From contig NC_092679.1 in assembly GCF_964355755.1 (NCBI RefSeq), forward strand, positions 18,397,432-18,461,431: 64,000 nt of DNA, in the 5' to 3' direction. Source of the stretch: Antedon mediterranea (taxonomy: Eukaryota; Animalia; Echinodermata). How positions within the stretch are numbered: the first letter of the stretch is position 1; the number at the start of each line of letters is the position of its first letter. Positions 13,400 through 41,400 of the stretch are shown in pieces. The notes beneath the pieces are model-generated. The model was given only the letters and a program-made list of their open reading frames with translations, ran no database searches and was not told the origin of the DNA. The position numbers and the translations under genes are program-made.

Positions 13400-14902
13400 A
13401 TGGTGATGAGCGAGTCAGAAAAAGTTTGTAAATCAACGCTGAAGAATTTAGACAATTTGGTTCACGGTTTTGTCGAATCCGTCGCTCACGAACACGAGCA
13501 TCAGATTGACCATCTGAAGGAGACGCCGAGCTTTGCCGCCGGTAATAATGTAATAACTGAATTTACAAATCAGCCTGAATCTACACCTCTCAATCAACTA
13601 CAGACACAAACGCAACAACTCCCGACGTTAAAAGAGAACCAACTACTCGAAGAGACTATTACTACTACCTCTAGATTTAGCGACTTTAGCTTTCTGCCAG
13701 AAAGATCCGTTCTTACAGAATCTGCAAAGTCTTTAATGATTGACTCTTACGAATTGGCTAATGACACTCTAGCCGTAGTTCGAGTGCCGCCGAAGAGTAA
13801 GCGTCTTTTTTCAGCGGCTCTGCTGGTTGCGAATGCAACACATAGATCTGTAAATTCATTGGTGTCGTCTGGTTTTGGATCAGACGATATAATTCCTGAA
13901 AAAGACACTAAAACTTTACCGCTTCCTATCGGTTTCAACGAATCTGCGATTGCAAACGCGCTGCCGACTGCTGTGAATAAACTTAAGAAACAGAAGAAAT
14001 CTCGAGGTACTTCGAGATTGAATGCTGTGTTGAAAGAGACATCAGCAGAAGAAGAAGAAGAAACAATTGACCATCGTTTGAAGATGTTACAACGACGTCT
14101 TGATAGAATTCCAAAAAAAAGACATCAATGCAGAGAGAGCAATAGCGGATGCTCTGTTGATGATCCGTTGATGTTTAACAACTGCACTAAAATGAGCGAA
14201 TCGGTCGTCAGAGATAATCTTAACAATATTATTACTTTAGAGAATCTCAACATTACGCCCAATAAGAGTTACACCGCTGTCGAAATAAACGACAGCGAAA
14301 GTGAAGAAGATGACGAAGAAGTAGTTATACGAAACGAAGATTTTCAAAATGAAGACTATGGCGTTCTGGGTGTTATAATAGAAACAGAAATTACTGATAA
14401 ACAAATTATGAAAAATAAGAAGAAAAAGAAGAATAACGTGCTTCCACTTTCGTTATTCCGTGCAACTGTTAACTCAAATTTGGAAGTCGACATAGAAAAA
14501 AGGGAACGCTTTTTAAAGGAATATATACGGGTCGCCACACTTGCCGAACCTAATGTTGTCGTTTCTTTGTACTGTAGATGGAACCCTCGTCTGTCCGTAG
14601 CATGTGGTCAGACGACAGAATTGATTATGTATACTATGAAAGCCTTCTTTACCACAAATAGCGGTCTACACGTGAATTGGATTCATAGTCCTGAGGAACA
14701 ATTTGAACGATTTCTCGAACGAGGCGCGCGGATGAAATTTCGTAAGAGTAAAGACTATCCGGTAAACGTCACGGCAGTACTGGCTTTATCACGTGACGCA
14801 TCCATATTGCTCAAGAATCCAAACTCAAAACTTTTACGCTCTCTGAGCGAACTTTTGGGAATCAGTAAAAACGAATTAGCAGTTGTTGAGATAAACGTTT
14901 AA
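13400..14902 (+). CDS. Uncharacterised 500-aa protein in a single coding exon, with a disordered/acidic N-terminal part, a poly-Lys NLS-like stretch and a ~155-aa globular C-terminal domain
   Basis: 1.5-kb uninterrupted ORF in AT-rich DNA, splice acceptor TTGACAG at 13383 just upstream, AATAAA at ~15084 downstream, divergent from TRMT6. Confidence 0.75.
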   Translation: MVMSESEKVCKSTLKNLDNLVHGFVESVAHEHEHQIDHLKETPSFAAGNNVITEFTNQPESTPLNQLQTQTQQLPTLKENQLLEETITTTSRFSDFSFLPERSVLTESAKSLMIDSYELANDTLAVVRVPPKSKRLFSAALLVANATHRSVNSLVSSGFGSDDIIPEKDTKTLPLPIGFNESAIANALPTAVNKLKKQKKSRGTSRLNAVLKETSAEEEEETIDHRLKMLQRRLDRIPKKRHQCRESNSGCSVDDPLMFNNCTKMSESVVRDNLNNIITLENLNITPNKSYTAVEINDSESEEDDEEVVIRNEDFQNEDYGVLGVIIETEITDKQIMKNKKKKKNNVLPLSLFRATVNSNLEVDIEKRERFLKEYIRVATLAEPNVVVSLYCRWNPRLSVACGQTTELIMYTMKAFFTTNSGLHVNWIHSPEEQFERFLERGARMKFRKSKDYPVNVTAVLALSRDASILLKNPNSKLLRSLSELLGISKNELAVVEINV

Positions 14903-16619: not shown

Positions 16620-19246
16620 TCACGTTATCTTGATTCCGCCCGCAACCGAAAATGTTGAACTGAGTGACCGAAGACTGATGACCCTTCTACGGTTGAATGG
16701 TCGTAAAACCATTGGAAGTTTGTGTTGGAATGTTACCAATAAAAAGAGTATAAAAACACAAATTAGTAATATATAACCCATGGAAACGGCAAACTCTGGT
16801 TCCTAAAATAAACGAGAAAATATTTCAAAAATGATAATTTTATTATTTAACCACACATTCTATGGAAAACTTTGTCCCATTGGCAGAAGGGGCACTATAA
16901 TTTAGATTCTAGACCGAAATTAGTAAAAAGATTAATATTTCGGCACATATGGCGTTTCATACGAAACGCCGACGGACATAAAAAAAGACTGCCAGGGAAG
17001 TATTATTTATTATTTTCATACCTCAGTTTGATTTAGCTGCCATAGTTCTTATTTTTTTTCTTTTATAAGGCCTTAAGGTCAAGCACAGCATCAATTGAAA
17101 GGTAGGGTCAATCGGTCAGTATTGCTAAAACATTACTCTTGGGTCAAAACCAAGCAATAAAAATATTTAAAGGAATAGGGGGGGACCTATAGAAAATTTA
17201 CTCTACTAAAAAAACTAAAATGCTCAGGCAACATTTTGTTCGTCAAGATTTATCTTCATACTTACTTGTGACATATGAAAGTATTGGTGAATTTGTTCCT
17301 CTTTCCATTTAATAGCATAATTAAAAATGGTCTCATATAATGACATTAGGTTCGATACCGTTTCCTACAAAAATGCAGAAATTAAAAATTTTAATTCAAG
17401 CATTTGAAATGAAAATTTGTTTTGCTTATTAATCAGCGTTTGAGCAAAACATTGACCTACCTGTAATTGGTCATTAGGTGGGTTGAACAGATCAAAGCAT
17501 TGCGCTCCTTTGTGGTCCCCATTTCCCCATATTTCCATTGCATATGAAAATGGTATCTAAAACAAACATAATATATAATAATTCAATTCAATTTATTTCC
17601 ACAATATTATAACATACATACTGGATAATAAATGCAATGAAGTAATCATGTGGGAGGGGGAGAGGGAGAGAGTCATATAAGTCAGACCACCCAAGATATA
17701 ACATTATTAAATACGAATAAGAAAAATAAATAGCGAGTTCCAGTTGAAAGGAAAAGGCACGTTGACTATATGTTTTGTGCTCTCAATAGATGTAAACATA
17801 TATTTAAACATATATATATATATATATAGAAACATATATGGCATTTAACTTTCTTTTGTTCAGAATCCCCTTTGTCTTCCTCCTCTTCCCCAACCCCCAC
17901 ACCTCTTTCCACTAGGCCTTTGTACCTTCTTTATTCCAGACATATAGTCAAATATCGTGCCATCAGCTGGGTAATTATTCAACTTGTAACCTATTCCAAA
18001 ATTGAAATCATCTACAGACGCCCTCGCTATCTTGGAGGCTAGGTGTAGTTGTGCGTCCATGTTGTTGGGAACACGCTTCTCCTCCTTAGAGATGGAATCT
18101 GAAGTTTAATAAAATTAAAAAGTTATTCCAAAAAGGATTATGAGGTGCACATTCAAGTACATGCTTATTTTACTTTGTTTTGCCTGTTTTCTGTCTACAC
18201 TGTCAAACTAGTTTGACAAAAAAAAGTGTGATGTGCTCAAATATGGTAGTGATATGCCAAAATATGGTAGTGATATGACATGATCATGCCCATATATGGG
18301 CACATCACATATTTTGTCAAATTAAGTTTGGGAGCTTAATATATGATATGGGAAATAACTATCTTATATTACCTGCAAATGGAAGATATATTTGTCTAAC
18401 CCCAGAATGCAATGACACAAACATATCAAAGTGAAAACGTCTAGTGAGATCACGAAAAACAAAGCTTTCAGGCTCTATAAACGAAAAAAATGTAAATGCA
18501 TTTTATTGATTGAAAACAAACAAAAAGTACTAAAAAGTAGTATTATGAGATAAAAACCAACATGAACCTGAAAATGGGTGTGGCCCTCGGTACTCTTCAT
18601 CATTTGGATCACCTGAGCTTCCTTTACCGCCAAATTCCCAATCAAAGTTACGATCAAGATCAACGCCAACACTCGTGCCACGCCAACAATAATTATTCGT
18701 TCGCTCTATATGATTTCTCCCATCAGGATTAGCTATTACTATAATAAACAAATCGATGTGCGAAAGGACTTTTCTAGAAAATCCTTCCGTACTGGAGCCT
18801 CGAGCTGTGGCTAATCCGCTGGTGAGATTCGTCAATAAATGAAACATACTCTCGATGGGGAGAAACTCCCTTGCATGCTCTCCAAAAGATAATAAAATTC
18901 TAGGCTTATGGTCAGCAATGGTGTACATGTGCGATGCCATCCTGCTGTCCGAGAAATTGGAAATACGTAGTACGTATTGTGAAGCACCATTTCTAGATTG
19001 GTATTCTTCGTAATGCCTAATGTACCCCTGATTTTTAGTTAATAAGTCTTCAATATGATGTTTTATAGTTGATAGATTGTGATAAAATTTGTAGTCTGGT
19101 GTGTATATCTCGCGTCTTGGCTTAACATCACCAGATATTACAAAAGTTGTTAAAAAAATCCAGATATAGAAAGTTGAGGTCAAGGTGTAGATTGAAAAAT
19201 GAACTGTTTTCATATTTTTACGATACAGTGTCCTGAAAGTCACCAT
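16620..19246 (-). CDS. M14-family zinc metallocarboxypeptidase with N-terminal hydrophobic segment and C-terminal transmembrane anchor (exons 18568-19246, 18373-18474, 17926-18098, 17461-17556, 17266-17364, 16620-16802)
   Basis: Zn ligands in GEHARE and SLHSG, plus NPDGR, CWR, GVDLDRNF, YRGPHPFSEPE, GTIFDY and the catalytic Glu in YAMEIWG. The last exon encodes GYILLICVFILFLLVTF. All splice phases are consistent, but the start codon is uncertain (19246, 19213 or an upstream exon near 19670). Confidence 0.9.
18190..18330. mobile_element. MITE family A, copy 3 (right end degraded)
   Basis: CTGTCTACACTGTCAAACTAGTTTGACAAAA...CCATATATGGGCACATCAC, colinear with copy 1. Confidence 0.75.
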
Positions 19247-20401
19247 CGTTTTAACCGGTTTAAGGTGGTACTTCAAGTCAAATAAAGTGTGTTGATTGTC
19301 TTCACAAACTGAAAAGAAACATATTTTAGTATTAAATTTATTAAGAATGTTCATGGGTTATCTAATCCATTTTATACTCCAGATTTAATGAAAATTATGA
19401 TAAATTATTGAATGTTATTAATTATTAATACATGTTTTGCTATGTATATTTCAGCCAGGTCTAAAACGACTTAAAAATTTAAACGATAAGATAATTGATA
19501 TTAACTATAGTCTAGGCTAGGACTAGGAGGTTTGAATACTGAATTAATGTGTGAATGTAATGCCTCCCATGCATAGAAGAAATTGGAATACGATATGTTA
19601 CACGACAGTTATAATATATATACGTATCATCATTTAGTGTGATTATTATTATTTCCATAATGTACTCACCGTCATACACAAACCCAATGTACTCCTCTGT
19701 ATGTTCACATCTTTTTCTAAAAACAAGATTATCGATTTTCGTTTAAATTAGAGAGTTTTACAGAGAGTATAATTGTTTATACTGCTGGTAGAGTACACGG
19801 ACTTATTTAAAGGTTGAAGGTTAAATTTCACGCACCACTAGTAAACAATAACATCCAGGTGTACTCTCACTAAAATTACACACACTTGGCCGAATTGATT
19901 TATTTGATGGGTATGTGTTAAATTTCAATACCTATTTTCTTCAAAATATTAACAATTGCATTTTTTTCAAATAGAGTACTTTATATTTGCTACATAAGCT
20001 CAAATTGTATATTAGTGCTTCATTTAGGCCTTGTGGTTCCTCACCTTATTTGAACTTTAAACCCAATGTTATGCTGTAGTCTTTCTTATCCACTCGTTTA
20101 TACTTAAACTGATAAAAACAATAATGTAATACTGTTTTATAACAAAACAAGAATATTTTACCTGACGCATATGAGTTTTAGGGACATTGTTATTAATACA
20201 TGTAAGTATTTTCTTTGATAATTTAAAACCAATGAGTTAAATAGATCAAATATAAATCAATAGACGACTGGGAATCAGTCTAGCTAATAATTAACATGTT
20301 GACGTGTTCGTTAGTCGTGAATGCAGAAAATAGTGTTCGTGGGAAGAAGATAGCGGACGCTTCTTCTGATTTTAATGTTTACATTCCACTAAATATCGAA
20401 C

Positions 20402-23400
20402 ATGAAATTAATCACATATCTAAGTTTATCATTATTTTTAATTACCTATGTGTCAACAGCTAAATTATCAGATTTCAGACTGTGTACGGATCCGAAATGT
20501 CAGGGTAAGTTAGGCTCTTCGAAGGACACATCTTGTCCTCCCCCACACCGGCAAACACGGTACATCATCGTGTACACGGTTGAATGATTCCGGAAGTCAA
20601 CTTAGCCTAGGTATGGCCTACAGTATTAGATAGACCCCGGTCAATGACTGGCGGAGTTGTTATTATTTATATTATAAAATGTTATCAAGTAAATTACATG
20701 CTGCTGTTGTTATTATTATTAATCAATAACATAATAGAACATCATGCTTTAAAGATGTATTGTCCCCCTGAAAAAATAATTCTTAAAATTGTTTTTGAAT
20801 ATTCTATTTTAATGTAACATAATAGATGGTTATCCACTTTGACAAAAAATTGGATGAAAAAAAAATGTATTTACCTGAAAAAAATGTAATTTAAAGCAAA
20901 AAATGGTCAAATTGGCTGCCAGCTAATGGATTTTTGATTGAATTTTACCATTTATTTTGTCATTTTATAAGTGAAAACATGATTTTTTCTTTTTTTTCTA
21001 TTGAAGTGATTAACTTGATTAAAGCTATAAAATAACATATTCAAAGTCTGATTTAACTAATCTTCATTTTTCATGTTTTTTGGGGACAATACACCTTTAA
21101 CTATTATTAACTATTATAAATGAATGTTAAATTTGATTTATTTACCCTATTTATATCGTTTATTATTTAAGCCATACATATGTGAAGTGTACTTTTGTTG
21201 TAACAAAAATATTGTAAAAAATAAATGTTTGTTTACAAGTGATATATATCTATCTTTACAACTGCTGCAGTTTTTTTTTTCGATTGGATAGGTGGTCAGA
21301 GCAATTTTTCATTGTTCATCTATGATCTATTAGTATTTTGCCGTGTTTGTGTATTTGGTGATTTCATCTCTCCATCTCCTCTTACTTATTGTCTCACTCT
21401 GCTCCTTTTACCATTTCTTGGTTACTATTCTTTGAGCTTCTTGGTCCATTTATTATCTTGAGAACTCTTGTTACAGTATGTTTCCTGCCCATCTCCATTT
21501 CATTTCTTTGATCTTTTCTATAATATCCTTGATGTTTGTTTTTTGTCTCATTTTGGTGTATTTTGTAGTAAAACACATGACTGCCAGTAAAATTTCTATA
21601 CCATGGCCCTGTAGTCATTGTTTATAATATCATTTCTCCTAATTTAATAGAGCTGTCCCTGAATAGAGCTTGGCCATAGTAAAAGCTCTATCTACACTAT
21701 CTAAACTTTATGTGACAAAAAATGTCATGTCCATATATGCATGTTTTTTTCAAATAAAGTTTGATAGTTTAGACAGAGCTTTAGTTCATGTCATGGGAAA
21801 GTGTCTTTTTGAAGCTTGGATCCCACTAGTTTGCAACACTAGGAGATAAGTGCAATGCAAGGGATTTGACCAATTATCAACATGTGCTTACATCATTGCT
21901 AACGTCATTGCGTTGTGTCCTATAGAGAACCAAGCATGATAGAGGTGTTCCCTGAATATTGTCCCAAATGAGGGGTCCCACGTAGGCTAGAGTATGCTGG
22001 TTATGTTATCAAGCTTGTTTTACTTTCCTCAACAGCACCAATATCAAAAGGCAAAGCCCTGGTGACACACATGTCCGCTGATACTGATTTACTAAGTTTT
22101 GAGAAGGGTGACGATATACTAATTTTTTCAAGAGGTGCTGGAATGAAACCTGATCTATGGGGTGGTCAGGTAAATAGTTTTCATAAATATTTATTAAAAG
22201 TATTATGCCACATTTGTACTGTATACGAAAATAAGTTGTTAAGTAGTGAATAATTCCATCAGAGGAAATCTCAGTTGACAAATTATATATATTTATTTTA
22301 TCTTATATCTAATAGGTTGTGGGAAAAGGAGTATTAGGCTATTTTCCTAAGAATTTTTTCCAAGAAACACAAGTATTTAATAGCAATCCAAAGCATGTAG
22401 TTGCTATAACTGTAAGTGTATTTTTTTGTCCTCATAGGCACAGGTATGATTTTTTGGGTGGGGTTTTGATATAATTATGATACAATAATATTGTTAGCGA
22501 AATAGCTAACAAGCATCAAATATGTTTTACTTTAGCACTCAGTACCTGTGCCTCTGTTATATAATAAGAATGAGAATGAGAAAAAGTCGCCCCAACCGAG
22601 ACTCAGACTCGGACCGCCTGCTTGATATGCAGATGTCCTAACCACTGGGGCTTTCATGGTATTGTTCAAACTCGATTGGATAGCGACTCTTTAACATTCT
22701 CGGCGTGGTACGGCGGAACAGCACTAGTCCTCAGTTGTACGCACGCGCAACAGAGATCAAATTGATACGCCCTCATCTTTCAGTATTTTTATTCACGAGG
22801 CGGGATCTCCGAAGAGATACTTTTATATATATAAACACAGCAGGCAAAGAACATTAATTCTAAACCACCCGGTGATATACTGAAATTTAATTAATTAATT
22901 TGAAACGATAAAGATGAGGAAATCTGTGAGAATGATAAAAAGTCGCCCCAACCAAGATACAGGCAAAGAAAAGTAATTCTACACTGCCCGGTGATACTGA
23001 AATTTAATTAATTAATTTTAAACGATAAAGATGAGGAAATCTGTGAGAATAAGAAAAAGTCTATACATATATTACTGTATTAATATTATTTTCAACACAT
23101 CAAATTACATTTTGCAGTATATGTTTAAGAAATTCTGCATACATTAAAAACATCTGGACTTTTATGACAGCATTGAACTACTGTATTGTAATAAAATTAA
23201 TCACAATTGTAATCAGTATGGCTCTGTTTGTAGTATTCAAATAGATAAAGGATAGCTTTGCAAATGATATAAAATCTGACCAAAAAGAAAACCAATGCAT
23301 CATGTTTAAGAGCCTCTGCTGATAAAATTTAATAAACACTATGTTAAAAAAAGCTTAATGTGCTTTTAAAATCCCATGATATTTCTGGAGCTTTGCCCCA

Positions 23401-26400
23401 TAAACCATGGAGGTATGGGCCTCTCCCCACCCTCGACACTACACTCTATAGCTGGCCTGCAAGATATAACAGTCAGACCCATACAATAGTGGAAACCCCT
23501 GCTTTAGAAGTATGTTATTATAATTATATTTAGGTGGTGTAGTAGTTGGTGTAAGAAGAACAATGAACAATAAAAATGTTTGTTATTTACAGCTTCAAAA
23601 GCCTGACATCCCAGTTGTTAATCAACCACCTAAAGAGATACCGCCCACATCAACTGCTGGTGAGCAACAACCAGAGTTACCAACTGGACAGCCTGTCGTT
23701 ATGGCTGAAGGTCAGCAAAGTGAAAAGACAGCTACACAACAAATACATGCACCACATGTGCAAGGAACTCCCCAACAACATCAGGAAACAGAAACAACAC
23801 AACATACTCAAGAAACACATACACAACAACACACCCAAGAAACACTGAAACCACAACATACTGAAGAAGCAAAAATATTACAACATAACCAAGAACCACA
23901 AGAACCACAACTATCACAGCAGGACAATACCAAACATTCCCAAGATGAAAACGCACAGCAACATATCCAACAAGAACAAATACAAGTGCCACAAAACACC
24001 CAAGAAGTAGAGACACAACAACACATACAAGAGGAACAAACACAACAAAATAGACATGAAGAACCACAACTTACCCCAGAAGCAACACTGGAACAAAATC
24101 AAGATGTGCAAACATTGGAACATAAACAAGATGAACCAGCAGTGCAACAAAATCAGGAAACACCAGAACAAACCCTAGAAACACATAAAACACAACAAAG
24201 TAAAGAAGAAGAAACACAACAGCTTAAACAAGAAGAACAAACGGGGCAGGAAGAAAAAGAAGCACTACAGCCCATCGAAGAAGTTCAAACACCAGAAGAA
24301 CACATGGGGCAGAAAGAAGAACCACTACAGCCTAAAGAAGTAGTTCACACACCTGAAGAACAAACAGGGCAGGAAGAAGAACCACTACAGCCCATCGAAG
24401 CAGTTCACACACCAGAAGAACCAACCGAAGAAATCAAAGAATTAGAAAAGATATCCGAGGTAGAGTCAGAAACTGAAACACAACAATCGGGTGAGGACAG
24501 TCCGCAGACTGTCATTGACCTTGATCAAAAGGATCAAACATCTGACGGTGACAAAGATGTAGAAAGCAAACAAACAAATGAGAAGACTGAAGGTTTACCA
24601 GAAATAGAAGATGAAGTAGAATCATTATCACATAAAATACCAGAATCTCCTTCTGAATTGGCTCTTGAGGTCTTGGAACCAGATGAAATTCCAGTAGCTT
24701 CAGGTATGTCTTTTTTATATTAATATAAAACTAACATTTTCTATTAAGTGTAAAAAAAAACCCATTAAAGCATTTTACTCTATTAAGAGTTTTGAAAAGA
24801 AGCCTTGGAACATGTAGGTTTACAATTAACTGCGTTTGCTACACCGTATTATCATCTAAAACTAAGTGTACATCTTGTTTTTGCTTTACTAACTATTCAT
24901 GCTTAAATATATAGTAATGATTTAGTTGCAGCCAATCCAGCAGCAGATGGTAAAACACAGAGCCAGGAGCCTGATAAGGTAGACACTACAAAACCTGGTA
25001 AAATAAATAAACATTCAGATAATAGTGATGTGTTTGTTTCTGATAATCAGATTGTTAGTAAAGACCATCATCATTCATTGGATGATGGCCAAAGAAATGG
25101 TGACCAAAGAATGGTAGATGATTTCTCAAAGTTTGTTGAACAGAAAACTGCACCTAATAATGTCGTTAATTCTGTTTTACAAAACACTGATGCTCAAAAA
25201 ATTAAGCTGGATACACACACATTTGAAAATGAACAGAACTCGAAAGAACACAGTCCATCTGCTGATGTCACAACTAACCCTTCTGAAATTCATGATCAAA
25301 AAAGTATAATTAATAATAAAGGAGTTTGTTCTAATAGTGTGCTGGAGTTCATTATGAAAATATTCCAATGTAAAGTTGAAGAAGTCTTCACTGAGAAATC
25401 ACTGGTTCGTGAGCCTAACATTAAAAGTGAAATTGACACAGTAACCTCAACAATAGAATTAACAGATGAAAAAGCTCCTGATAAAAATGCTGTTGATGTT
25501 AGTGGACTTCTGGAAATATCGCCTTGTCAGTATGTAAGTTTTGAGTCATTTGTCTTTAAGAAGACAATGCTTCGTAAGCCACTTGCACCTTTATTGAAAA
25601 TCACCACAGACAATACTGATGAATTAAACATTGATTCAGATACTACAGTGTCTTCATATTGCAGTAGTGTTTTAGATGAATGGCTGATGTTAAGAAAGAG
25701 ACCATCTTCAATATGTTTATTGCCTGATACTTTATTAGATAAAAACAAGGAATCACAATCTGATGATAAACCAAAAGTAGAACCAGCTAAAGAGGAACAG
25801 GAACATGTGTCAGTTAAAGAAACAGAATCAGAAGTAGAACCAGCTAAAGAACAGAAACATGTGCCAGTTAAAGAAACAGAAGTAGATTCTGCTAAAGAAC
25901 AGGAACATGTGGCAGTTAAAGAAACAGAATCAGAAGTAGAACCAGCTAAAGAACAGGAACATGTGCCAGTTAAAGAAACAGAATCAGAAGTAGATTCCGC
26001 TAAAGAACAGGAACATGTGGCAGTTAAAGAAACAGAATCAGAAGTAGAACCAGCTAAAGAACAGGAACATGTGGCAGTTAAAGAAACAGAATCAGAAGTA
26101 GAACCAGCTAAAGAACAGGAACATGTGCCAGTTAAAGAAACAGAATCAGAAGTAGATTCCGCTAAAGAACAGGAACATGTGGCAGTTAAAGAAACAGAAT
26201 CAGAAGTAGAACCAGCTAAAGAACAGGAACATGTGTCAGTTAAAGAAACAGAATCAGAAGTAGAACCAGCTAAAGAACAGGAACATGTGCCAGTTAAAGA
26301 AACAGAATCAGAAGTAGAACTAGCTAAAGAACAGAAACATGTGCCAGTTAAAGAAACAGTATCAGAAGTAGATCCAGCTAAAGAATTGGAACATGTTTCA

Positions 26401-29400
26401 GTTAAAGAATCAGAAGTAGATTCAGCTAAAGAACATGAAAATGTGTCATTTAAAGAATCAGAAGTAGATCCAACTAAAGAATTGGAACATTTGTCGAAAT
26501 TAGAAGTAAAAGAATATCCAGAATCAGAAGTAAATAAAACAGAAACCAAACAAGAAGAAGCATTACATAAAGTAAAACAAGAAGTCAAAGAACCAAAAGT
26601 AAAGATAGAACCAAAACCTGATGTGCCTACACAAATTCATAATGGTATATGCCCTAATGATTTTCTTTCTTGGTTAATATCAGCATTTCACTGTGATGTC
26701 TTGGAACATGTTCAGTCTTTTAAGCAGTTAATGAATGGTACCAATTCAAATTCTTCTTTACATTTTTTAGATATTGTTCTTTCAACATGTCCTAGCCATC
26801 ATGACTTTCCACAAGCTGATTTAAATAGTCATTCTTCTGTGATTAGTATTCCTGCACATTTAAGAAAAGAGTTGTCAAAGTATGATCTTTCAAGAAAAGA
26901 TGTTTGTCATTTCTCTTGCTTCCATTATTTTTTACAGTTTATAGGTCGTCAAGATTTGTGCTTCTCTTATGATATTCCACTTCAGATTGATAATAGTCCT
27001 TCCTCTTTCACAAAAACCATCAGTCCAAAACCAATTAGCATGCTAATGACATGTCCCTCTGTCTTGAACCTATTTTATTCAGAAACAAGAATGTGTCCTT
27101 TTGTCAAAAATTATTCAAAATCAGCCAAACAGGAAGTTGTCTATACTACTGTTGGTGATTGTGTCGATTACATGATTGATTTAATCCTTCCGCAAGTTTG
27201 TCTCACTAGAATGTCTGACAAATTTGAATTTTCAACTGATAAGGAAACAGTCGCAGAAACAACAGCAATTTCAGCAGCTAAGTTGAAAGATCCAAATGTT
27301 TGCAAAACTATTGAATTTCAACAGGTTGTAAAAGAGTTGTATCAGCCAGTTTGCTCTGCAGAAATTAAAGTTCAAACTAAATATTTACCCACACTGTTTA
27401 AAGACAACTTAATAAAACCTGATACAATTGGCTCACAAAGTACATGTCCTAATACCGTACTAACAATATTTCAACCAATTGTCCATAAAATGTGTTCTCC
27501 AAAAACTGCAAACATTAGAGAAACTGTTAAAGCAGAGGATACCACACCAACATTGTTAAACAAAATCTTAATCAAATCTGATATTAAATCTATTGCAATT
27601 GGCCCACAAAGGACATGTCCCAACACTGTACTAAAAGTCTTTCAACCAATTGTCCATAAAATGTGTTCTCTGAGAGATCATAACCGTTCAGAAATGGTTA
27701 AACCAAAAGATACTACACACAAATTACAAGACATCTCAATCAAACCTGATACTAAATCTATTGATACCATTGGGTCACAAAATGTGTGTCCCAACACTGT
27801 ACTAAAAGTCTTTCAACCAATTGTCCATAAAATGTGTTCTCTGAGAGATCATAACCGTTCAGAAATGGTTAAACCAAAAGATACTACACACAAATTACAA
27901 GACATCTCAATGAAACCTGATACTAAATCTATTGATACCATTGGGTCACAAAATGTGTGTCCCAACACGGTACTAAAAGTCTTTCAGCCAATTATTGTCC
28001 ATAAAATGTGTTCTCCGAAAGATCTTAACCAATCAGAAACTGTTAAACCAAACAATACTAAACAAATATTGTTAAACAAAACCTTAATCAAATCTGATAC
28101 TAAATCTATTGATACCATTGGGTCACAAAATGTGTGTCTCAACACTGTACTAACAGTCTTTAAATCATTTGTTTATAAAATGTGTTTTCTGAAAGAAAGA
28201 TCTTATCCTAAACAAATTGTTGAACTGAAGGATTACTCTAAACAAGAAATTAAAGCTAATCAAAAAAAATCAGTTTGCCCAAGTGTTATGCTAACCTTTC
28301 TACAGCCATCTAAAAGTTTACAATGTAAAATTCCATTACCAGAAGCACATTTATCACATTGTTGTGTCAAAACATTTTCAAGCAGTATATTAAACATGTT
28401 TCTTCCTCAAAACAAAACAAAATGTAAAGCTAAAGATAGAAAACCAAGTACAAATTTCTATCCCTCTAGTAACTTTGGCTCCTCAATTTCTGTTATTAAC
28501 TTATTTGTACCTAAAAATAAGTTGGTATGTCCAGTTCGTCAACAGAACATGAAAACTAGTGTGGGCATTCCAACTTGCCCTAATATGGTATTAGACATTT
28601 TTATACCAATGCATAAATTAAAGTGCCCAATAAGGACTAACAAGACAGACGACACATTTGATGCTTCCAAAACTCATTCATGTCCAAACACTATGTTAGA
28701 ATTGTTCATGTCCGCAAATAAATTGATATGCAAAAATCTATTTTTTAAGGAACAAAGTCAAACCTATGGATCCACATCTTGTCCAAATTTTGTTTTTGAT
28801 TTGCTACTTCCACTATATAAAATGAAATGTGAAGCAAAGAAAAATATGAAACCTACAGAAGAATCACCATTTTGTACAAATGACGTATTAGAAATTTTAT
28901 TGCCTATGCAAAAATTGAAATGTAAAGTAGTTTCTCCTTTTTCTGGCAATCTTTCAACCAGTTGCCCAAATGAAGTTTTAGAAATCTTGCTTCCATCTCA
29001 CAAACAAAAATGTCTGATTGCATTTATTGACGTGATAAAAGAGAATAGTTGCCCGAATTTTGTTTTAATCATGTTCCTTCCTAATCATAAACTGAAATGC
29101 TTAATACCAAAAGCATCAGAACCAATTGAAGATGTAGACTGCCTCAATTACTTTCTTGAAATGTTTCTTCCATCCCATAAATTAAAATGTTCAATGAGAA
29201 ATTATTTGCCAGAGGTCTCTTGTCAAAATACTGTTCTAGATATGTTTCTTCCAATACACAAATTAAAATGCCTTAAAAAGGTATCTTTGTTAGGAAACTC
29301 TTGTCCAGACACTGTTCTCCAAATGTTTCTTCCATCATCTAAATTAGTTTCCATACCAACAGTAATGTCAAAGGTGGACTTGAACTATTGTCAAAACACT

Positions 29401-32400
29401 GTTCTCCAAATGTTTCTGCCTTCTCATAAATTAGTGTGTAAAACTCCACCCATCCAAGTTTCTCTTTGCAATGATGCAATTTTAGAGATATTCCTTCCAT
29501 TACACAAACAAAAATGTTTAGTTAAACAATCTAATAAGCCTGTATACCAAAATGATAAATGTGTGAACTATATTTTGGCGTTACTTGTGCCTGAAAATAA
29601 ACAAGTCTGCAAGAACAAAGTAATGGCAGAAAATGAGAATCACTCAGATACAGATGAAATTTGTATGAACATCGTTTGGCTTTGGCAACAAATTGCAAAT
29701 TCTAAGCCGATGTGCAATGTAGTACATTCAGACATAGAAATGACAATGCCTGTAAAAAAGAAGACTGAAAATGCAACATCTGTTGCCTCCGCCGTAAAAA
29801 TAGACTTGGCTGATAAAGAGTTTATCAGCAAAGATCCCTCCGCAATGAAAATGGACTTATTAGATGCCTCCGCAGTACAAACAGAGCCTAAAGAAACTTC
29901 ACCTATTGACCAAAATATCTTACCAGTACATCCAAAGACATCAGCGACTAATGGCAAAGATCCCCCGACAATAAAAATAGACTTTGATGCTGGTAAAGAT
30001 TCCTCGGCAGTGCAGACAGAGGCTAAAGAAATATCAACTCCTGGTCAAGATAATCTAACAATACATCAAAAGAAACCAGAGTCTAAAGATCCAAAATCGG
30101 TAGGAAAAGTGAACTTGGATGTGTCAGCAGTAAAGGCAGAGCCTCAAGCAACATCTCTTGTTCAAGATATTGTACCAGTACATTCAAAGACTCCAGAATC
30201 AACCATGTCTAATAATGATGTCTCAGCAGTACCTTCAAAGACTATAGAAGTAGTGTCTGTTGATCAGGATGTCTCAAAACACCATCTAGTAACTGTGGAA
30301 GAAACATCTAACAATCAGGATGGCAAATTAGTTAGTCCAAAGAAAGATAAAAGAACATCCTCTGCTCCATCAGTAAATTCAGAAAGGCGGAAAAAATCTG
30401 TTTGGAAAACCCACGATATCTGTTTAAATACATTTTTAAATATGCTGGATCTAAACCCATATTGTATAGAAACCTTGGAAACTAAACCTTCCAGAAATCA
30501 GATTATGCCACCAACATTTGATGATCTAGATCTTGACAACATGAAGGTATATATTTCTGATCAGTTCAATGATACTGATGTCAATCATCATGAGTTGGTA
30601 GTGACATCACACTATTCCATGCCACCTACATCAAATGCCCTTATTTGGCAATTTGAAAATCCCCAATGTTTACCAAAGAAAAAAATGCTGTACACAAATC
30701 ATAATGTAGTTGTCACTCCTTATATGGAAGACAGACTAAAGCCAAGACATCTCAAGGAACAAACTGCTGTTAAAAATGGTGAAGGAAAGAATGCTGATCG
30801 TGGTAGGAAAATAAACAAATTACAGCTTATTCTACATCACTTTTACATCCCTCTCCATTCCACCATCCAATTTCTTATTTGTTACCCAGCCTCCCTTATC
30901 TGCCTTCCATCTCTCTACCTACAGTACTCACTTGAAAGCATGGTTGTCTATTTTGAACAACTTTTTTTACTTAACTGAAGAATTGCTTTTGTGGCATCAA
31001 TCTTATTTCTGCACTTATAAAATTAAATTTTTAATCTCCCTTGTTTTAGATTGTTTGTAGGACTTTGCAGTGCCTTCTCTCTCATTAAATGCTTTTTTTT
31101 TATTCCAGACAGTTTTACAGCTTTTGCACATATTTTGTGTTTCTAACTTTTTGCCATTTGAAGTTCTAGATCTGTGGTGGTGGTGGATTTAGTATGAAAG
31201 CAAAGCTTGGTTTAAACTATTACTTTACTTGGCCATAGTACTCTCAAACAGGTTCAAAGAGTACCTGGACAATGCATGCTTTTAAACTTGTTCATAATTT
31301 CAATACTGTTGTAATGCTTTCTTTATTACAGGTGTTGTATACATTTCATTTTTCATTTGAAAATTGTTAATGAAATATTTAAATAAACATTTCATTGGAA
31401 CATTTTGTAATGTTGTCTATTGAATTAATCAAACAATAGAGACTTTAGGAATGGTGACACATTTTACCCTTACCTCATATAACAAATAATTTCCAATGAG
31501 GTGTGTATTTAATGTAAATTTATCATTGTTTTGGGTTTGCCTTTGTTAATTGTGCATGTTTTTACAATAACTTCTTTATTATGCTCATAAAAATAGTATA
31601 ATAATTTTAGTTGAGTTATGTTGGTTTATTATTTCATGTTTACTATTTGAATTGATTCATAATTTAATTTTACATCTTTGTATTTGTGGGGTTTGATTGA
31701 TTTTTGTTGAATTGATTTTTTTTTGTTATCAAGAGATAAAATGTTTGATTGATGTAGAAATACGAATACATTTCTTAAAAAATGTAACTATAAATTTAAA
31801 ATGATTTTTTATACAAACAGTTGCATTAATACAGTAACCTAAAATGAGTCTTATTGTTTAAAAACAAAATAATAGAACTCATGTTATTGTGCTATTTTTG
31901 CATCAATTTTAACATTTTATATCTTTTCATAATTTGTTTTAAAGACATTTATTCGATTGCGGTTTGCATATTGTGCAGTCAATTACTTTTTTCATGGTGA
32001 TGGTGTTTTTTATTTATCTATTGTTTCGTGAACTATAGTATGCATTTGTTTCTCTGTAGACTCAGAAGGCCTAGCCAGTGAATCACACCCACTAGAGTCT
32101 GAAGCTGGAATGAAAGGACCACAAGATAAGGTAAGAGATGAGCAATTTGAAAACAATATTCACAAGGAACAGCATGAGGTACAAGGTGGAGCGCATGTTA
32201 CTTTGGGCCATTCAGAAGGTGGTAGTGATATTGGAAATTTACAACCAGGAATTGTTCAAGTAGAGTCTGGTGTACCACCAGCTCTTGATGAAAGTGTTGA
32301 TGATGTTGCAGGAAAGAAAGAAAATGTTGAACAAAATCCAGTTTATGTAAAAGAACAAGATAATGAATTTGTTGACAATAAAGATCAAGAGAGTGAAGAT

Positions 32401-35400
32401 AATGTTGAAATGAAAGATGTTATTAGTGATTTTAGAGAAGAAGAAGTTCTTGATGAACACAAAGAGGCAGAGAATATAGAAGATCCAGCAACTCATCTTC
32501 AAAATGAGGTTTATAGTGAAATTAATGAGAAAGATGGAATAGAACCTGTATCAATAACCTTAAATGATTCTGAGAATCTTTTACACAAAAATGATGATAA
32601 GGATGAAGAAGAAAATAAAAGTTGTGAAGAAGAAAGACGCATCAAAGAAAGAAGGGTTGAAGAAGAAAGGTTAGAAGAAGAAAAAAGAGGTGAAGAAGAA
32701 AGACGAGGAGAAGGAGAAGAAAAACAGGACAAAGACAGACTAGAAATAGAAAAACAGGAGCAAGATAGACTAGAAAGAGAAAGACAAGAGAAATTAAAAC
32801 GTGAAGAAGAAAGACAGAAGCAAGATAAACTAGAAAAAGAAAGACAAGAGCAATTAAGACTGGAAGAAGAAAAACAGAAGCAAGATAAACTAGAAAGTGA
32901 AAGACAAGAGCAATTAAAACGTGAAGAAAAAGAAAGACAGGAGCAATTAATACGTGAAGAAGAAGAAGAAAAACTGGAACAATTAAGACGTGAAGAAGAA
33001 GAAGAAGAAGAAAAACGGGAACAATTACGACGTGAAGAAGAAGAAAGACAGGAGCAATTAAGACGTGAAGAAGAAGAAGAAGAAAGACAAGAGCAATTAA
33101 GACATGAAGCAGAAGAAAGACAGAAGAAATTAAGACGTGAAGAAGAAAGGCTTCTAGAAGAACAAAGATTAGAAGAAGAAAAGAGAATCGAGGAAGCAAG
33201 AATTCTTGAAGAAGAAAGAAGACTTGAGGAGGAAGAGGAATGGTTAAAATCAATGATTGAATCAGTAGATGCAGAGGATGAAAAAAGACTAAATGAGGAA
33301 ATAGCTGAAGAAAATTGGCTAAATTCTATTGTAAGTGAAGGGAACCATGACGAAGATTACGAAGATGAGGAAGAACGGATAAATAAGGAAATGCTTGAAT
33401 ATGCTAAAGAAGAAGCTAGACAAAATGCTGAAGAGATTTTGAGAGAAATGAAAAATATGGAATTTATCAGTGAGTCTGACACAGATGAAGATGACTACAA
33501 CAAAAATGTTGGGGTTACTTCAAATGATCCTGAAGAAAATGAAAAATCAAAAGAAGACATTAGCAAAGAAAGCAGCCAGCCTGACAACAAGATGGAACAA
33601 GCTGCTAAACGTAGACTTGTCAAAAACCTGTTAAAACCAAAGAGACATAAACAAAGACGTAAAGATGATGTTCACAATGCTGGGGATGATGTCAACAATT
33701 CTTTGGAAAGTCAAGTGCACAGCACTGAACAAACAATACAGACTGAAGAGAGTGGTGAACAAAATAGTATGAAAAAAAATGATTTTCAGTTTGGTGTTGG
33801 CTTAAAACAAATACCAGAAGAACAAGAAAAAGAAAACCCAGAGATTGATTTAAGTACCCAACAACAAAAGCAGCAAAAACAAGAAACTGAAGAGAAAATA
33901 GATTTAGTTCCAGAATCCCTACCAGATAAAATTGGAGATATAAATACAAATCAGAAAAATCCTTCTGATTCTTCAAGTAACCAAAATCTTAATTTCGACA
34001 AAATTGAAAAAGAATTTATTGAGTTTAATGAAAGGAAAGACAATATAAAGGAAAAAAATTACATTCTTGAAGATAATGAAGATAAACCTTTGGAGTCTGA
34101 TAGTACAGATGATTTTTACTTTGACTCTGAACAAAAAGAAAATACAGCTGACCAACAAGGAAACTCTAAAAAAGATGTTGATTTGGAATCACATAATTTA
34201 GAAGAAAATCATGCTGAAGAAATTGTTGAAACAGAAGTCAATTTAGATAAAGGAGTAAAAACTAAAACAACTGAGATTTTGGAATCAGATGTTGAAGTTG
34301 AATCAGATGTTGATTTAGAATCAAATGTCGATTTGGAATCAAATGATGATTGGAAATCAGAGGGTGATGACATTGATATTGATAAAGAACCACAAAGTAA
34401 TTCCAAAGAAAATCATGTAAAAGAAATTGTTGAACCAGAAGATGATTTAGCTAAAGGAGTAAAAACTGAAACTGAAATTGTTGAGGAACCAGAAAGACAT
34501 TTCCAACAAGAGGATGTAAAGGAAGTTGAATCAGATTTGGTAAGTGAGGGTTTTGTAGAGGGCCTAAGCGATTCACAAGCTGTTGAAGATCAGGTAGAGC
34601 AAACTAAAAGAGATGAAGACATATATGTGGAACAAGAAGAAAATGAAGTAGATAATGACATGGAAAATGGCAACAGACAGAAAGAGCCAATTCAACCCAA
34701 TATATCAGCAATCCATAGTGTTCCCTTGGAAATCGAAAGAAACACAGCCTCTCCAAAAATACCCGAAGTTCATACTAATAGTGACCCGCTAGTAGTTGCT
34801 CGAGTTGGAGATGTGCTAAAACCAAATCAGAAGAATGTATTGCCAGATGCGACTCCACAGAGGTCATCTCATCAGGGTGATTCTCATGGTCACAGTGGTC
34901 AAGATCTGGAATCTGATACATATGTGGTTCACCGAAAAAGAACTCTTAAGGTGTAGTCTTGATCTCCTGTTCTTTTGGATGTTGCTCTGCCTGATTGCCA
35001 ACGTAATAGTCCTAATTGCTTTTAATCAAACTAACATCAAATATATAAAACAAAAGTCTGATCTGCAAAGAGTTTTAAGTCTGTCAAATGAAATAATTTG
35101 TAAATGATTCTCAGCGAACATTTTCATTTGGAATCTTAAATATTTGAAACATCGTTTCATGCTACTATTTTAGCTACCATTTATGATTTTGTAGCATCAT
35201 TTCACTATGCTACACTTTGTGAAAATGTTCCCTGATTATGTTAATTCTGCATGCATCTGACCATAAATTTAGTTTATGCAACTAAATTAAGGAATTTACC
35301 AAGCAACTAAATTGAATTGCAATAATTAATAATAAATTTGTATTATATGTATACAGTACCAAGCAAACTGTAAAAGCACCTGGCATGCATTACTAATCTA

Positions 35401-38400
35401 TTGTGGCATAATAATGGAAAATGGATGTTTTGTTTTTTATTTTGTGCATTTAGGTTACCACCATACTGGCTATGTTAAAATATAATATTGTACAATATAT
35501 AATGGTCAGTTAATATTGTTCTAATATTTTTTAATTTTCTCATTGGATTTATATATTAACTATCACTGTTATGTAATTTTAATCTTAACGACACTATTAT
35601 CTAAAGGCTCCTACCAATTCTGCGGTCAAGAAAATTCCAAACAAAAATGTTTTCAAAATTTTACATAGGCCTTTTTATTATTATTATAATGTCTATAATT
35701 GTATTTTAAATTAATTTAAATTTGTGCTTAATAATATTCTAAAAGAAATTGATAACATTAGTAATTTATGATATGCTGCAGTGACTGGTAGATATGATTT
35801 TAGATTAAATCTTTTGCATGTACCAATCCATTCAAATTATAATGTATTGTTGTAAAACAGCTGCACACTCCACATGCAATTAACCTGTTTGTACAGTATG
35901 CATGATTAATTAGTATTATGAATATGCATGAACTAAAGTACTTGAATTTAAGTTCTGCTCTGTCGATTTAGAGACTTTAGATTTCTTTAGTAGCATGTTC
36001 TTTAGTTTATTTTTATTTTACATTTTTAGCTGAGAAAAAAGTAACAAAATCAGATAACTAAAATTAGATAGATTTTTGACAACAAAATTAATTTTGCATC
36101 ATAAATGGAAAAGTACTCTAATAATTGCTAAGTATTATTAAGATTTTTTAGTTTTGTTAAACTTTTTTAATTGTCATCCGAAACTAATTATTCTATATTG
36201 CAGTTACTGCAGTAACTACATAATGATTTGCAAAAGAAGGTTAAAGAGTAAATAAACGTTGGACCTGGTTCCTTATTCTTTCCTTCATCATTGCATTCAT
36301 TTCTGCTTTATTTCTAGAAGTCAGTTGAGGAGAACCTAGAAGAAGAGGATGACAACAAACCTGTTGTAAATGATACAACGCTGTATGATGTTTGGTTAGA
36401 GTTGAAAGCTGGTATTCGTCCAGGTGTCCAGAGCTTAGTAGGTCAATTAAACCCTTTACTTGAGCAGGTAAAGTTCCACAATTTGTTCCTATAAGTATCA
36501 CATTGCACTATTGTTTGAAGTTTTAAGTAAAACCTTTTATAAAGGTTTTTTTTCAATTATGTAGTATTTTTTTAGCAGTGGCGTAACAGCTACTTCATGG
36601 ATGGATAAAAAATGTATATAATCTTTGTTATTTAGATGTTATTATTTTCTACATTTTATGATAATCCATTTTTGTTAATTTTTTGTCTTTCAGCTTCCAG
36701 ATGATATGCACAAACAGTTGATTTCACCTGACTTGTGGGGTTATCCATGGATTGCAATACTTTTTGCACAGTCATTTGTTGTATTTATGTTCATAATGTT
36801 GTATGGCTGTGTAAGTACAACTTTTATATGTTTATATTTACACAAACATTCTTGATGCAAAATAATTAACTGTAATCTAAGTTATACAATTTATTAACTT
36901 TGTTTCTTTTATAACACTATAGTGTCTTACTATAATTCACCAAATTTCTGAGTGTCTGTTCCAGCTTTATTCAAAGACTAGAGGTAGCAAACTTGGTGGG
37001 TGGGTGCAGCTCAGTATAAGAATAATCTGTAGATAGTTTGTTTGTCTGACCTTTATCCTTGCTCTTTATCTTTAATATTTATACTACTATGCATCCTAAT
37101 AGTTAATTCTTTTTTACTTCTCAGATGTGTAGATCAAGAGCATCTAGAAGTAAGTATCTTTGCTTAGAAGATTTGCTTTGTTTTAAAAAACTTTACCTAC
37201 AGTATGCCAATATTTTAGCCAGTATGTGGAATAATCAATGCAAATGTTATACTGGTTTAATTAAGACATTGATGGTTTCCATTGTTAATCAATTATTTTA
37301 TGTTTTATTTGTAGAGTTAAAGGTGTTACATGAGGCCGAGTTGTTAAACCAAGAAAATGCCAAAGAAAATTTATATGACGCTTATGAAAACATGGCTTCT
37401 GTGGTAAGTTTTGGTCTTGACATGACTGGGTAGCTATTTAGCATACACTCTTGCAGTGTAGATAGGCCTATACTGTCATTTTCCTCTATACCACATATAT
37501 ATTTTATTTATATTTATTTTTTTTGTAGGCTAAAGAGTACCATCAGAAGTTCAATGACTTAGAAGAAAAAAGTTTGGATTTTGATAATAAAATTAAAGAA
37601 GTTGAGGTTTGTACAAGTTCAATGTAACTGGTTTTTCATCTAATATTTCAAAGAATGAGCATTATAATATTGTAATGAATTCAAGTTGAAAAATAAATTT
37701 ATATATATTTGTTCATCATTTTATTTGCAGAATGAGAAATTGGAAGTGGAGTTAGAACTGAAAACTGTTCGTGAAGAACATTCAGATTTGTACAAGCAAC
37801 ATGAAGATACAGTAGAAGATTTACAACAGCACCAGCAACATATAGCAAAACTACAGAGCGATATTGATTCAGCTTCTAACTTAATTCAAGATCTTAAATC
37901 ATCAATTCAACAGGTAATTTACAACTACCTAGAAACAAGAGAATATAAATTAGCGGACTTTCAATTTGCAATAACCTAGGAACTTGTTACGTCATGTTAA
38001 TTCATTTTGCGCGTGCAGGGATATGGTGACATGCTCCTAGATTCTGTGATACATGTTTTGGCGAATTCTAGTTCCAGACAGTGTCAAAAAACAATAATTA
38101 CGTGCAAATCCTAATTGCCGTGGGTCCGTGGAGGACCTAATCTGAATTTCCTCAGTTTCCAGTTAAGCTTGAGGACAAATATAAATACCTTTACCTTAAT
38201 TGAAACACCCTAACATGCAGGTCCAACGTCCTAGGTCTTCTCAATTCTCAATTACTTCCACCTAACTAAAACCGTTAAATCTATTAAACCGTTAATACTA
38301 TTAAACCGTTATAACTATTAAACCGTTATAACTATTTAGCCGTTAAATCTATTAAACCGTTAAATCTATTAAACTGTTAAACACTATTAAACTATTAAAA

Positions 38401-41400
38401 GCTGTAAAAAATTATTAAACCGTTAAAAACTATTAAACCGTTAAAAACTATTAAACCTTAAAACTATTAAACCGTTAAAAATGATTAAACTGTTAAAAAC
38501 TACTAAACCGTTAAAAGCTATTAAACCGTTAAAAACTATTAAACCGTTTAAAACTATTAAACCATTTAAAACTATTAAACCGTTACACTATTAAACTATT
38601 AAAAGCCGTAAAAAATGATTAAACCGTTAAAAACTATTAAACCGTTAAAAACTATTAAACCGTTAAAAACTATTAAACCGTTAAAAACTATTAAACCGTT
38701 TAAAACTATTAAACCGTTAAATCTACTGGACCGTATAAGTCTATTAAACCGTTAAAAACTATTAAACCGTTTAAAACTATTAAACCATTTAAAACTATTA
38801 AACCGTTAAACACTATTAAACTATTAAAAGCCGTAAAAAATGATTAAACCGTTAAAAACTATTAAACCGTTAAAAACTATTAAACCGTTTAAAACTATTA
38901 AACCATTAAATCTACTGAACCGTATAAGTCTATTAAACCGTTAAAAACTATTAAACTATTATTTTTCTTGTGTATAGCTTGAAGATCAGCTAAAAAATAG
39001 TATAGAAAAAGGGGCTCAACTTGAGCTTGATTTGGGAACTGCTCAAGAACAAAATGAATTATTGGAAGAAACCAAACAGCAGGTATTTTGAAAGAAAATA
39101 TTTCTTTTTTTTTAATGTATCTTATTAAAATATTCTTTTATTTACTTACTTAATTTGATTTTATTATTTCGTAGTATGCACAGGACACGGATGGCTGGAA
39201 ACAAAGGTATGTATTTAAAATATATATATATATATCCAATCTGCAGACAGTACTGTTTCGATCTTATTAGATTTCGTCAGTGTAGCTCCGGTTTCAAAAT
39301 GAAATGTACCGCAGAACTGGCACAATATATAAGCTGAGCCAGGTGTGCGGGACATGGTACACAGATTTATAAACAGTGCACAAGCTCAACGAGCGATATA
39401 TATATATATTTTCCTAAATATTATAACTAAGTTGTATAAATTATTAGAGTATTAATAAAATTGAGAAATTTGAATACACTTTTTGTTTTCTTCTAAAAGA
39501 CATTCTGAAGTTCAAAATGAGATGGATAGGTTGATTGAGCAACAGACAGAATTTAAGGAAACTATCAAAGAAAAAGAAGATGAAAATGAGGTATTGTATA
39601 ATCGGAAATAGAATTGTATATGCCTACTTGAACAAAGCTCGAACCCCGACCTCCAGATAACTAACCTGCCATTCATACTGTCTACACTATCAAACTTGTT
39701 TGACAAAAAAAGTGTGATGTACCCAAATATTATAGTGATATTCCCAAGTATGGTAGTGATGACATCATCATGTCCATATTTGGGCACATCAACTTTTTTT
39801 GTCACATCAAGATTGATAGTGTAGACAGAACGTTAGTTTCAACGGTAAAATAGATTCCTGTATGCAAATACATAAACAAACAGATGTCTATTCTACTCTT
39901 TTTATTTATGCAAATAAATAAACAAACATAATAGAATAGACATCTGTATGCAAATTAATTGTGCATATAATTATGCATAAACAAAACAAGGTATAATCAG
40001 GAATAGAATAAAATCTAAATAGACTATTTAATATTGATTTGAAGACTTTTGAATAATTTAAAACACATTTTTGTTTGTATTTGTAGGTTTTGAAGGACTG
40101 TCTTGTTCAATTAAAAGGCCTTGAAGCTGATGAGGAAGATGGAACAGGTAGGAGAACCAGAGACAAATATATTAAATTATGTCTTGATTTCTGTCATGAT
40201 TTTGTGATTTGCGATAAGAGTTGATTCACAGCTTGTTCCCGCTGGTAAATGCTTTCTCTTGCATTTCAAATAACTAGTTATCTAGTAATAATCGCATATA
40301 TTCTAAAAATTAATTTCCAGAAGGCGATTTAGAAATGAAGATTCAACAGTTAATGGATGTTTCTAAGATCAATACTCGGTTGGCAGCGACAGAAGAAGAG
40401 AGACAGCGGCTGGAGAACAGCCTACAAGAACAAACGTCTCAAAGACAACTTCTAGATAGTAAGATTTTTAAGTTTATTTAGTGTATCAAGTAAAATAGAT
40501 AGATCAATGATATAAGTCAATGAATCAATCATGGCCTAGGTTGTACCATAGAGGTATAAAATCTAATTTTATACCTCCATGGTTGTAATACTATTCACCT
40601 AAGACTGTAATTTCCTAAAAAAAGGCAAGTTTGTTTTATGACACACGAAGAGCTACTCATAAAAAAAAAGTATGAAGTAAGGTAAAGGAGAGTTAAAGTC
40701 GTTAAATATCATGAGCTTCATAAAGTGATACTTAACTCTATCTGGTCTGCAAGCAAGATGATATATAATTATAATCTAGAAAACTGTTTAGAACCCCTGT
40801 CTTATATTACTTTTATGCACCTTTGCCTGCCTCTGTTATCCCACAGACCAAGTAGAAGATTTAAAGCTACAACTGAAAGGATTAACTAGTGAATTTAGCA
40901 AAGTTCAAGGAGCACACAATCAAGCCGAATCAAAACATGAGGTATTACAGCAGTACTGGAAGGAACGAGAGACAGAACTGCAAAGGTATGCTGATAATAT
41001 GTTTATATACTCGTCTTTATTCTACTTCTCATAGAATCATCAAGTTCTTCTGTACTTATTATTTCTTCATTGTTTTCAACAGGAAACTAGGAGTAACCGA
41101 CGCCAAAAATATTGAATTAAATCAACAGTTAGATGATTATAGGAAAAACTCTACAGATGCTCAAGAAGATTCTGCAAACTATAGGTAATTGCATTGGTTT
41201 GTGTACTAGCCTAATGGGCTCCCAAATTTCAATATGTTCTTGCTCAGATAATTATCTTTTTCAAATATTATCTTCATTTTTCTTTTTGATGTCTTGTGTA
41301 AACAATTTTAAATACATGTTGGTCACGTAAAATCCGATATGACATATGTTGATAAACCAAATAGGAAAAACTCTACAGATGCACAAGAAGATTCTGCAAA

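Follow-up and report, generated by a model that had tools for sequence, protein, structure and literature searches.

A giant, selected and transcribed open reading frame in the TANGO1 gene of the feather star Antedon mediterranea, possibly an alternative terminal exon

We have analysed a 64,000-nucleotide stretch of the genome of the feather star Antedon mediterranea (assembly GCF_964355755.1, contig NC_092679.1, positions 18,397,432 to 18,461,431 of the forward strand; hereafter the window), which had been the subject of an earlier note made from its letters alone. Within the window, intron 4 of a gene resembling that of TANGO1, an organiser of export from the endoplasmic reticulum, contains 2,023 consecutive codons without a stop in one frame (24907-30978, + strand). 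This giant open reading frame (ORF) is real, selected, transcribed and misannotated, and its main feature is an array of cysteine-loop repeats that is absent from the earlier note. We favour the reading that the ORF is a minor alternative exon which usually ends the transcript and would give rise to a soluble, lumen-only TANGO1 of ~2,500 residues, a reading to which we assign a probability of about 0.45.

The frame contains no stop codon, whereas 200 shuffles average 149 stops and never have fewer than 104, and the other five frames over the same region have 68 to 233 stops each. The ORF had been placed at 25030-30978; this part is indeed stop-free, although 25030 is a GTG codon, the frame opens at 24907, and its first ATG is at 25111. 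Translation from that ATG begins MVDDFSKF and, as judged by eye, provides no signal peptide of its own. Selection on the coding sequence, which the earlier note had proposed, is borne out by the repeats. When 12 diverged cysteine-loop units are compared without their Cys columns, codon positions 1, 2 and 3 show identities of 0.56, 0.77 and 0.44 (permutation p=0.00015) and the ratio of nonsynonymous to synonymous divergence (pN/pS) is 0.45; moreover, where repeat copies differ by an indel, its length is a multiple of three. From this codon-position divergence and the in-frame indels it follows that the giant ORF evolved as a protein, with coding selection on its repeats.

The cysteine-loop motif has the consensus CPNxVLxhFLPxHKLKC, and the 63 cysteines of the ORF are mostly paired. 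A profile built from 16 units recovers 18 units at an independent E-value (iE) below 1e-5 together with two degenerate ones, all in one array (Table 1); elsewhere in the six frames of the window the best matches are three out-of-frame shadows within the repeat region (iE 0.003-0.02). The C-x15-C spacing occurs 17 times, compared with a mean of 2.0 and a maximum of 8 in 5,000 shuffles, one of the 17 being a pair between units. Looser C-x12-16-C units are found at residues 141, 582-816, 1586 and 1839 of the ORF. The repeat units measure about 26-35 and 57 aa. Two AlphaFold models are of low confidence (mean pLDDT 32 and 50) and are consistent only in short helices at the motif cores.

By sequence comparison we could not match the motif to any known family among Pfam, the PDB, the Atlas and a library of 1.84 billion proteins. 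The ORF has no Pfam family, the repeat profile finds no PDB sequence at E<=10, and neither ORF nor motif has a usable match in the Atlas. A phmmer search of the large library returned three matches: one is the self model, and the other two, repeat proteins of a nematode and of Neospora (17% and 23% identity), are unrelated and were rejected as homologues, the similarity being repeat-driven. A metagenome scan confirmed none of 121 pattern matches, Foldseek with the pLDDT-50 model gave no matches and is uninformative given the quality of that model, and exact look-ups from three ORF starts found no match in the protein collection. Residues 820-1620 of the ORF matched none of 3,785 candidates of 1,112-3,541 aa and none of 692 candidates of 3,542-5,000 aa. 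The first 953 residues from the ATG at 25111 are identical to the RefSeq Antedon mediterranea protein XP_071963317.1.

The host gene lies on the + strand and has at least 24 exons, from 20402 to beyond 43445; a 24-exon model that skips the ORF and uses GT..AG junctions runs through 2,134 codons without a stop. Its domain order supports the earlier assignment to TANGO1, since a signal peptide, a long acidic lumenal region, a transmembrane (TM) segment, a coiled coil and a Pro-rich tail are shared with TANGO1/MIA3 (PMC7062462), to which comes a candidate SH3-like domain of the MIA/TANGO1 (MOTH) type. The N-terminus, MKLITYLSLSLFLITYVSTA, is hydrophobic (19-residue Kyte-Doolittle mean, KD19, of 1.36) and by eye is a signal peptide. 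The 45-residue SH3 exon, a single exon of a three-exon domain, has three PDB matches, all in the MIA/TANGO1 family (E 0.05-0.09): the best is human TANGO1 (7r3m, E=0.05) and the next two are MIA entries. In Pfam the same exon matches SH3_2 at E=0.17, below the cut-off. Of the MOTH Cys pairs the gene carries just the first, in agreement with what PMC10119292 describes in invertebrates, and the remainder of its lumenal arm after the SH3, outside the giant ORF, contains one Cys. The TM segment reaches a KD19 of 2.22 at residue 1515, exon 37731-37913 has weak Pfam matches of coiled-coil type, and the last 159 modelled residues are 31% Pro with eight PPP. A homologue search with the SH3 exon matched none of nine candidates (80-2,000 aa), and no crinoid or urchin orthologue was obtained from it.

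Five sequencing runs from two studies cover the region, none of them recorded as RNA, and four were examined (X4 is from the same sample as X2, X3 and X5). In the three examined runs other than X1, introns and exons are covered alike, such that these behave as DNA of one sample. Run X1 we treat as RNA because of a GT..AG joint: a contig of 2,037 nt joins 24703 to 32060, and the skip isoform that had been predicted thus exists. The RNA evidence consists of assembled contigs of this one run, and such contigs drop rare joints. Among the 17 X1 contigs on 24200-32400 the skip joint is the only one, and with that limit no inclusion joint is listed among them, either 24703>24926/24932 or 30802>32060; the earlier note had named 24703>24926 and 30802>32060 as well as the skip joint as junctions to look for.

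Transcript coverage is nonetheless found over the 25.0-30.8 kb region. Between 24932 and 30978 no fewer than 3,921 of 6,047 nt (at least 65%) lie under the six X1 contig pieces listed, and X1 shows eight single-base differences and no indels in the ORF; this coverage supports transcription of the ORF. One contig, 30481-30914, runs unbroken across the putative donor at 30802, with 322 nt to the left and 112 nt to the right, and ends 64 nt before the stop codon. Another, 24969-25402, crosses the donor candidate at 24997 with 29 nt on the left, which is under our 31-nt rule and is not counted against the 72-nt exon (24926-24997) proposed earlier; this small exon has no support either way. Uncovered stretches at 24702-24968 and 30915-32057 fit a mature exon but prove nothing, and are not counted as evidence. 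Depth is 61 for the skip contig and ~4-9 for the ORF contigs, although with one figure per contig these are not used as expression levels.

All of the splice and end signals named for the ORF are present: the exon 4 donor (GTATGT at 24703), AG at 24924-25, G/GTAAAA at 24997, G/GTAGGA at 30802, the acceptor TGTAG/32060, the stop codon TGA at 30976-78 and AATAAA at 31382, to which we add the two ATTAAA candidates of Table 1. The skip, 72-nt and 5,877-nt joins are each in frame and stop-free, as had been claimed. Sites were scored with a matrix built on 23 junctions of the TANGO1 gene's own model (one of which is off by a base). The AG at 24925 proposed as the opening acceptor fits in phase but scores weakly (-4.8), and a better one in the same phase, TTGCAG/24932, lies 6 nt downstream (6.6); a branch-point-like CTAAC is found upstream of both at 24889. 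The ORF holds 87 phase-1 GTs, among which 30802 ranks third and 24997 fourth, with 29992 and 26644 scoring above both, and frame symmetry alone therefore says little. The tail beyond 30802 remains open to the stop, although the hydrophobic character ascribed to it is marginal, with a best KD19 of 1.64 against 2.22 in the true TM; a glycosylphosphatidylinositol-anchor or TM role for this tail was judged weak by eye.

In the form that we favour, exon 4 would be spliced to 24932 (or 24926), the donor at 30802 would be passed over, translation would end at 30978, and the RNA would be cleaved at a signal within 31022-31387. Besides the signal peptide and the MOTH/SH3 cargo domain, the predicted product of 2,496 residues would contain acidic spacers together with ~18-26 hydrophobic motifs flanked by Cys. 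Without TM, coiled coils or Pro-rich COPII-binding tail, it would resemble MIA2 in being lumenal or secreted. Within the oxidising endoplasmic reticulum (ER) a disulfide is predicted to close each motif into a loop round a short hydrophobic helix, and 18 or more motifs on flexible linkers may make a multivalent, sticky binding arm. Such an arm might hold or chaperone bulky cargo, or it might buffer cargo away from full-length TANGO1 or compete with it.

The joining of the ORF to exon 4 has to be weighed against a separate gene nested in the intron and starting at the ATG at 25111, as in the RefSeq model, which we consider unlikely. The identity of XP_071963317.1 to the first half of the ORF gives the nested gene some weight, and no X1 contig joins the ORF to exon 4. 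However, 68 codons are open upstream of this ATG, reaching back beyond the in-frame acceptor; the 60 that lie between acceptor and ATG are matched by 82 of 9,104 intron windows of the gene (0.9%), which argues for fusion. So does the missing signal peptide of a protein whose paired cysteines suggest a secretory lumen, and so does the end of the RefSeq model, reached through a frame-shifting GT..AG intron of ~52 nt inside the 171-nt repeat that leaves 3 kb of selected ORF unannotated. This intron (at about 27970-28021) is not among the joints listed in X1, and it looks like a mis-alignment of the repeat. If the ORF is joined to exon 4, it could instead be a giant cassette of 24926/24932-30802 between exons 4 and 5, adding 1,957-1,959 lumenal residues and taking the membrane TANGO1 beyond 4,000 aa; this was the headline of the earlier note and seems to us a possible but rather doubtful outcome. 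Its phase-1 symmetry, the open joins, the rank of the 30802 donor with the composition shift behind it, and the loss of rare joints by assemblers all speak for it. Against these stand the unbroken contig across 30802, the 30802>32060 joint unlisted in X1, the chance of a symmetric donor that 87 phase-1 GTs bring and, weakly, the lack of a matching protein among the 692 candidates of 3,542-5,000 aa. The terminal exon is favoured by the contig that reads through 30802 and by the open tail of 58 codons beyond it; a tail as open as this occurs in 106 of 9,110 intron windows of the TANGO1 gene (1.2%), although read-through as far as 58 codons is also found at one of 23 modelled donors. The truncated form is thus somewhat better supported than the membrane cassette, and the two uses can coexist.

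Several observations weigh against a terminal, lumen-only exon. No X1 joint links it to exon 4, and neither RNA ends nor strand nor level can be read from contigs; the evidence is from one run of one study whose RNA status is guessed, although its GT..AG joint supports the guess. The 30802 donor scores 6.3, within the range of true donors (median 7.1), and directly after it the composition turns C/T-rich, as the start of an intron might. Contigs of X1 also lie in two other introns, at 35221-35669 (depth 4.4) and ~37040 (depth 2.9), near the depths of the ORF, and the read-through contig, although it favours the truncated isoform of the earlier note, may therefore be pre-mRNA or DNA. The AlphaFold models are of low confidence and the disulfides are predicted only. 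Finally, the single-nucleotide polymorphisms (SNPs) listed in the ORF, at least 12, comprise 10 nonsynonymous and two synonymous changes and no stops (sites 3.8:1), and show no amino-acid constraint; constitutive exon 5 is alike (8:1 among the SNPs listed), which suggests that the whole lumenal arm tolerates substitutions. A once-functional exon in decay, which the run would have picked up only from unspliced pre-mRNA or DNA, would account for the near-neutral SNP ratio and the low-depth contigs in other introns. We regard it as improbable, given that none of the 12 listed SNPs makes a stop, that no ORF indel is listed for X1 or among 12 of 20 indel rows, and that recent repeats keep the frame. 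More improbable still is a mobile element, which the earlier note had raised together with a nested gene, or a captured viral ORF, as a long intron-free ORF within an intron might suggest: there is no Pfam family at E<=1 and no transposase, reverse transcriptase or integrase domain, none of the 25 longest of 44 inverted-repeat pairs flanks the ORF, and no related family was found in the protein library.

Table 1. Features of the TANGO1-like gene and of the giant ORF (positions in the window)
Feature	Positions	Strand	Evidence
TANGO1 exons 1-3, signal peptide and MOTH/SH3-like domain with one Cys pair	20402-20504, 22036-22169, 22316-22411	+	open model, PDB, Pfam
Exon 4, Q/E/T-rich lumenal region, phase-1 donor	23593-24703	+	present in run X1 contig
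Giant open frame, 2,023 codons, 63 Cys	24907-30978	+	frame count; X1 contigs over at least 3,921 of 6,047 nt
Two tandem in-frame candidate acceptors, exon start 24926 or 24932	24926-24932	+	matrix score
Acidic tandem repeat, unit 54 nt (18 aa), 12.9 copies	25775-26463	+	repeat finding
Tandem repeat, unit 171 nt (57 aa), 4.5 copies, one cysteine-loop motif per copy	27420-28196	+	repeat finding
18 cysteine-loop motifs (C-x15-C; one x16, one without second Cys) and 2 degenerate units	27445-29610	+	profile
Candidate phase-1 donor G/GTAGGA	30802-30803	+	unspliced read-through in one RNA-like run
58-codon C/T-rich, weakly hydrophobic tail to TGA	30803-30978	+	composition, Kyte-Doolittle
Candidate poly(A) signals ATTAAA 31022, ATTAAA 31084, AATAAA 31382	31022-31387	+	motif
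Exon 5, large acidic lumenal exon	32060-34950	+	RNA joint GT..AG directly to exon 4
Downstream TANGO1 exons: TM (36694-36810), coiled coil, Pro-rich domain (42966-43445)	36318-43445	+	24-exon skip model

Other features of the gene and its surroundings were recorded. Reading through the exon 5 donor leads to a stop two codons later (34956), and the X1 contig at 35221-35669 spans an AATAAA at 35331, which is either a possible second lumen-only isoform or merely a retained intron. Within TANGO1, 38269-38961 is an intronic microsatellite of an 18-nt unit in ~39 copies, and 41361-41416 is a partial copy of the end of exon 41083-41184 with AT in place of the donor GT. A zinc carboxypeptidase M14 exon (18530-19357, - strand; Pfam E=1.3e-18) lies head-to-head with TANGO1 at a distance of ~1 kb. 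Further upstream is an intron-free ORF of 503 codons without a Pfam family (13391-14902, + strand), whose stretch 13403-14899 has no exact match in the protein collection, and downstream, at 44900-57900, a long satellite-like array gives many near-identical short minus-strand ORFs.

MIA3 gives long and short forms (PMC8524724), in humans TANGO1L of 1,907 aa and TANGO1S of 785 aa (PMC7062462). TANGO1S drops the lumenal part, whereas here an optional lumenal exon of ~1,950-2,020 aa, rich in cysteines, would be added. From the human MIA/cTAGE genes come lumen-only, cytosolic and complete proteins (PMC7829582, PMC4862334), and the vertebrate MIA2/cTAGE5/TALI locus uses alternative exons to make both a lumen-only form with the SH3 and a complete one in the membrane, much as in the switch proposed here, which is therefore of a known kind. 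For this paralogue the same two papers, as far as available, describe no giant Cys-repeat terminal exon such as would make the feather-star form so large. A model for what the truncated isoform could do is the exon-8-skip truncation of human TANGO1, which lacks the coiled coils CC1 and CC2 and the proline-rich domain, spreads through the ER and interferes with the secretion of collagen I (PMC7062462); it is, however, the product of a disease allele, ending after exon 7 with no domain added, rather than a selected isoform. Among the papers listed by searches of the open-access literature, no title or abstract opening mentions such an exon in an echinoderm TANGO1. What appears to be new is the giant exon with its cysteine-loop repeat, the type of switch being already known.

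According to PMC7829582 the role of the TANGO1 lumenal arm remains elusive, and invertebrates are without the HSP47 adaptor that vertebrates use (PMC10119292). A selected, optional lumenal module of 2,000 residues, made of one short repeated motif, offers a synthesisable unit for cargo-binding tests, and an annotation error is indicated in RefSeq, which makes half of the ORF a separate 'uncharacterized' gene. One may speculate, albeit with considerable doubt, that this is an ancient, unannotated TANGO1 switch exon of ~6 kb common to echinoderms from crinoids to sea urchins, carrying a new array of disulfide-looped helix repeats and serving as a giant soluble cargo chaperone, or as a 4,000-aa receptor, for echinoderm-specific bulky cargo. 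If a homologous exon occurs in sea urchins, the module would be older than the split of crinoids from other echinoderms; and if our reading is true, TANGO1 of the feather star would be a gene that tunes cargo capture through exon choice.

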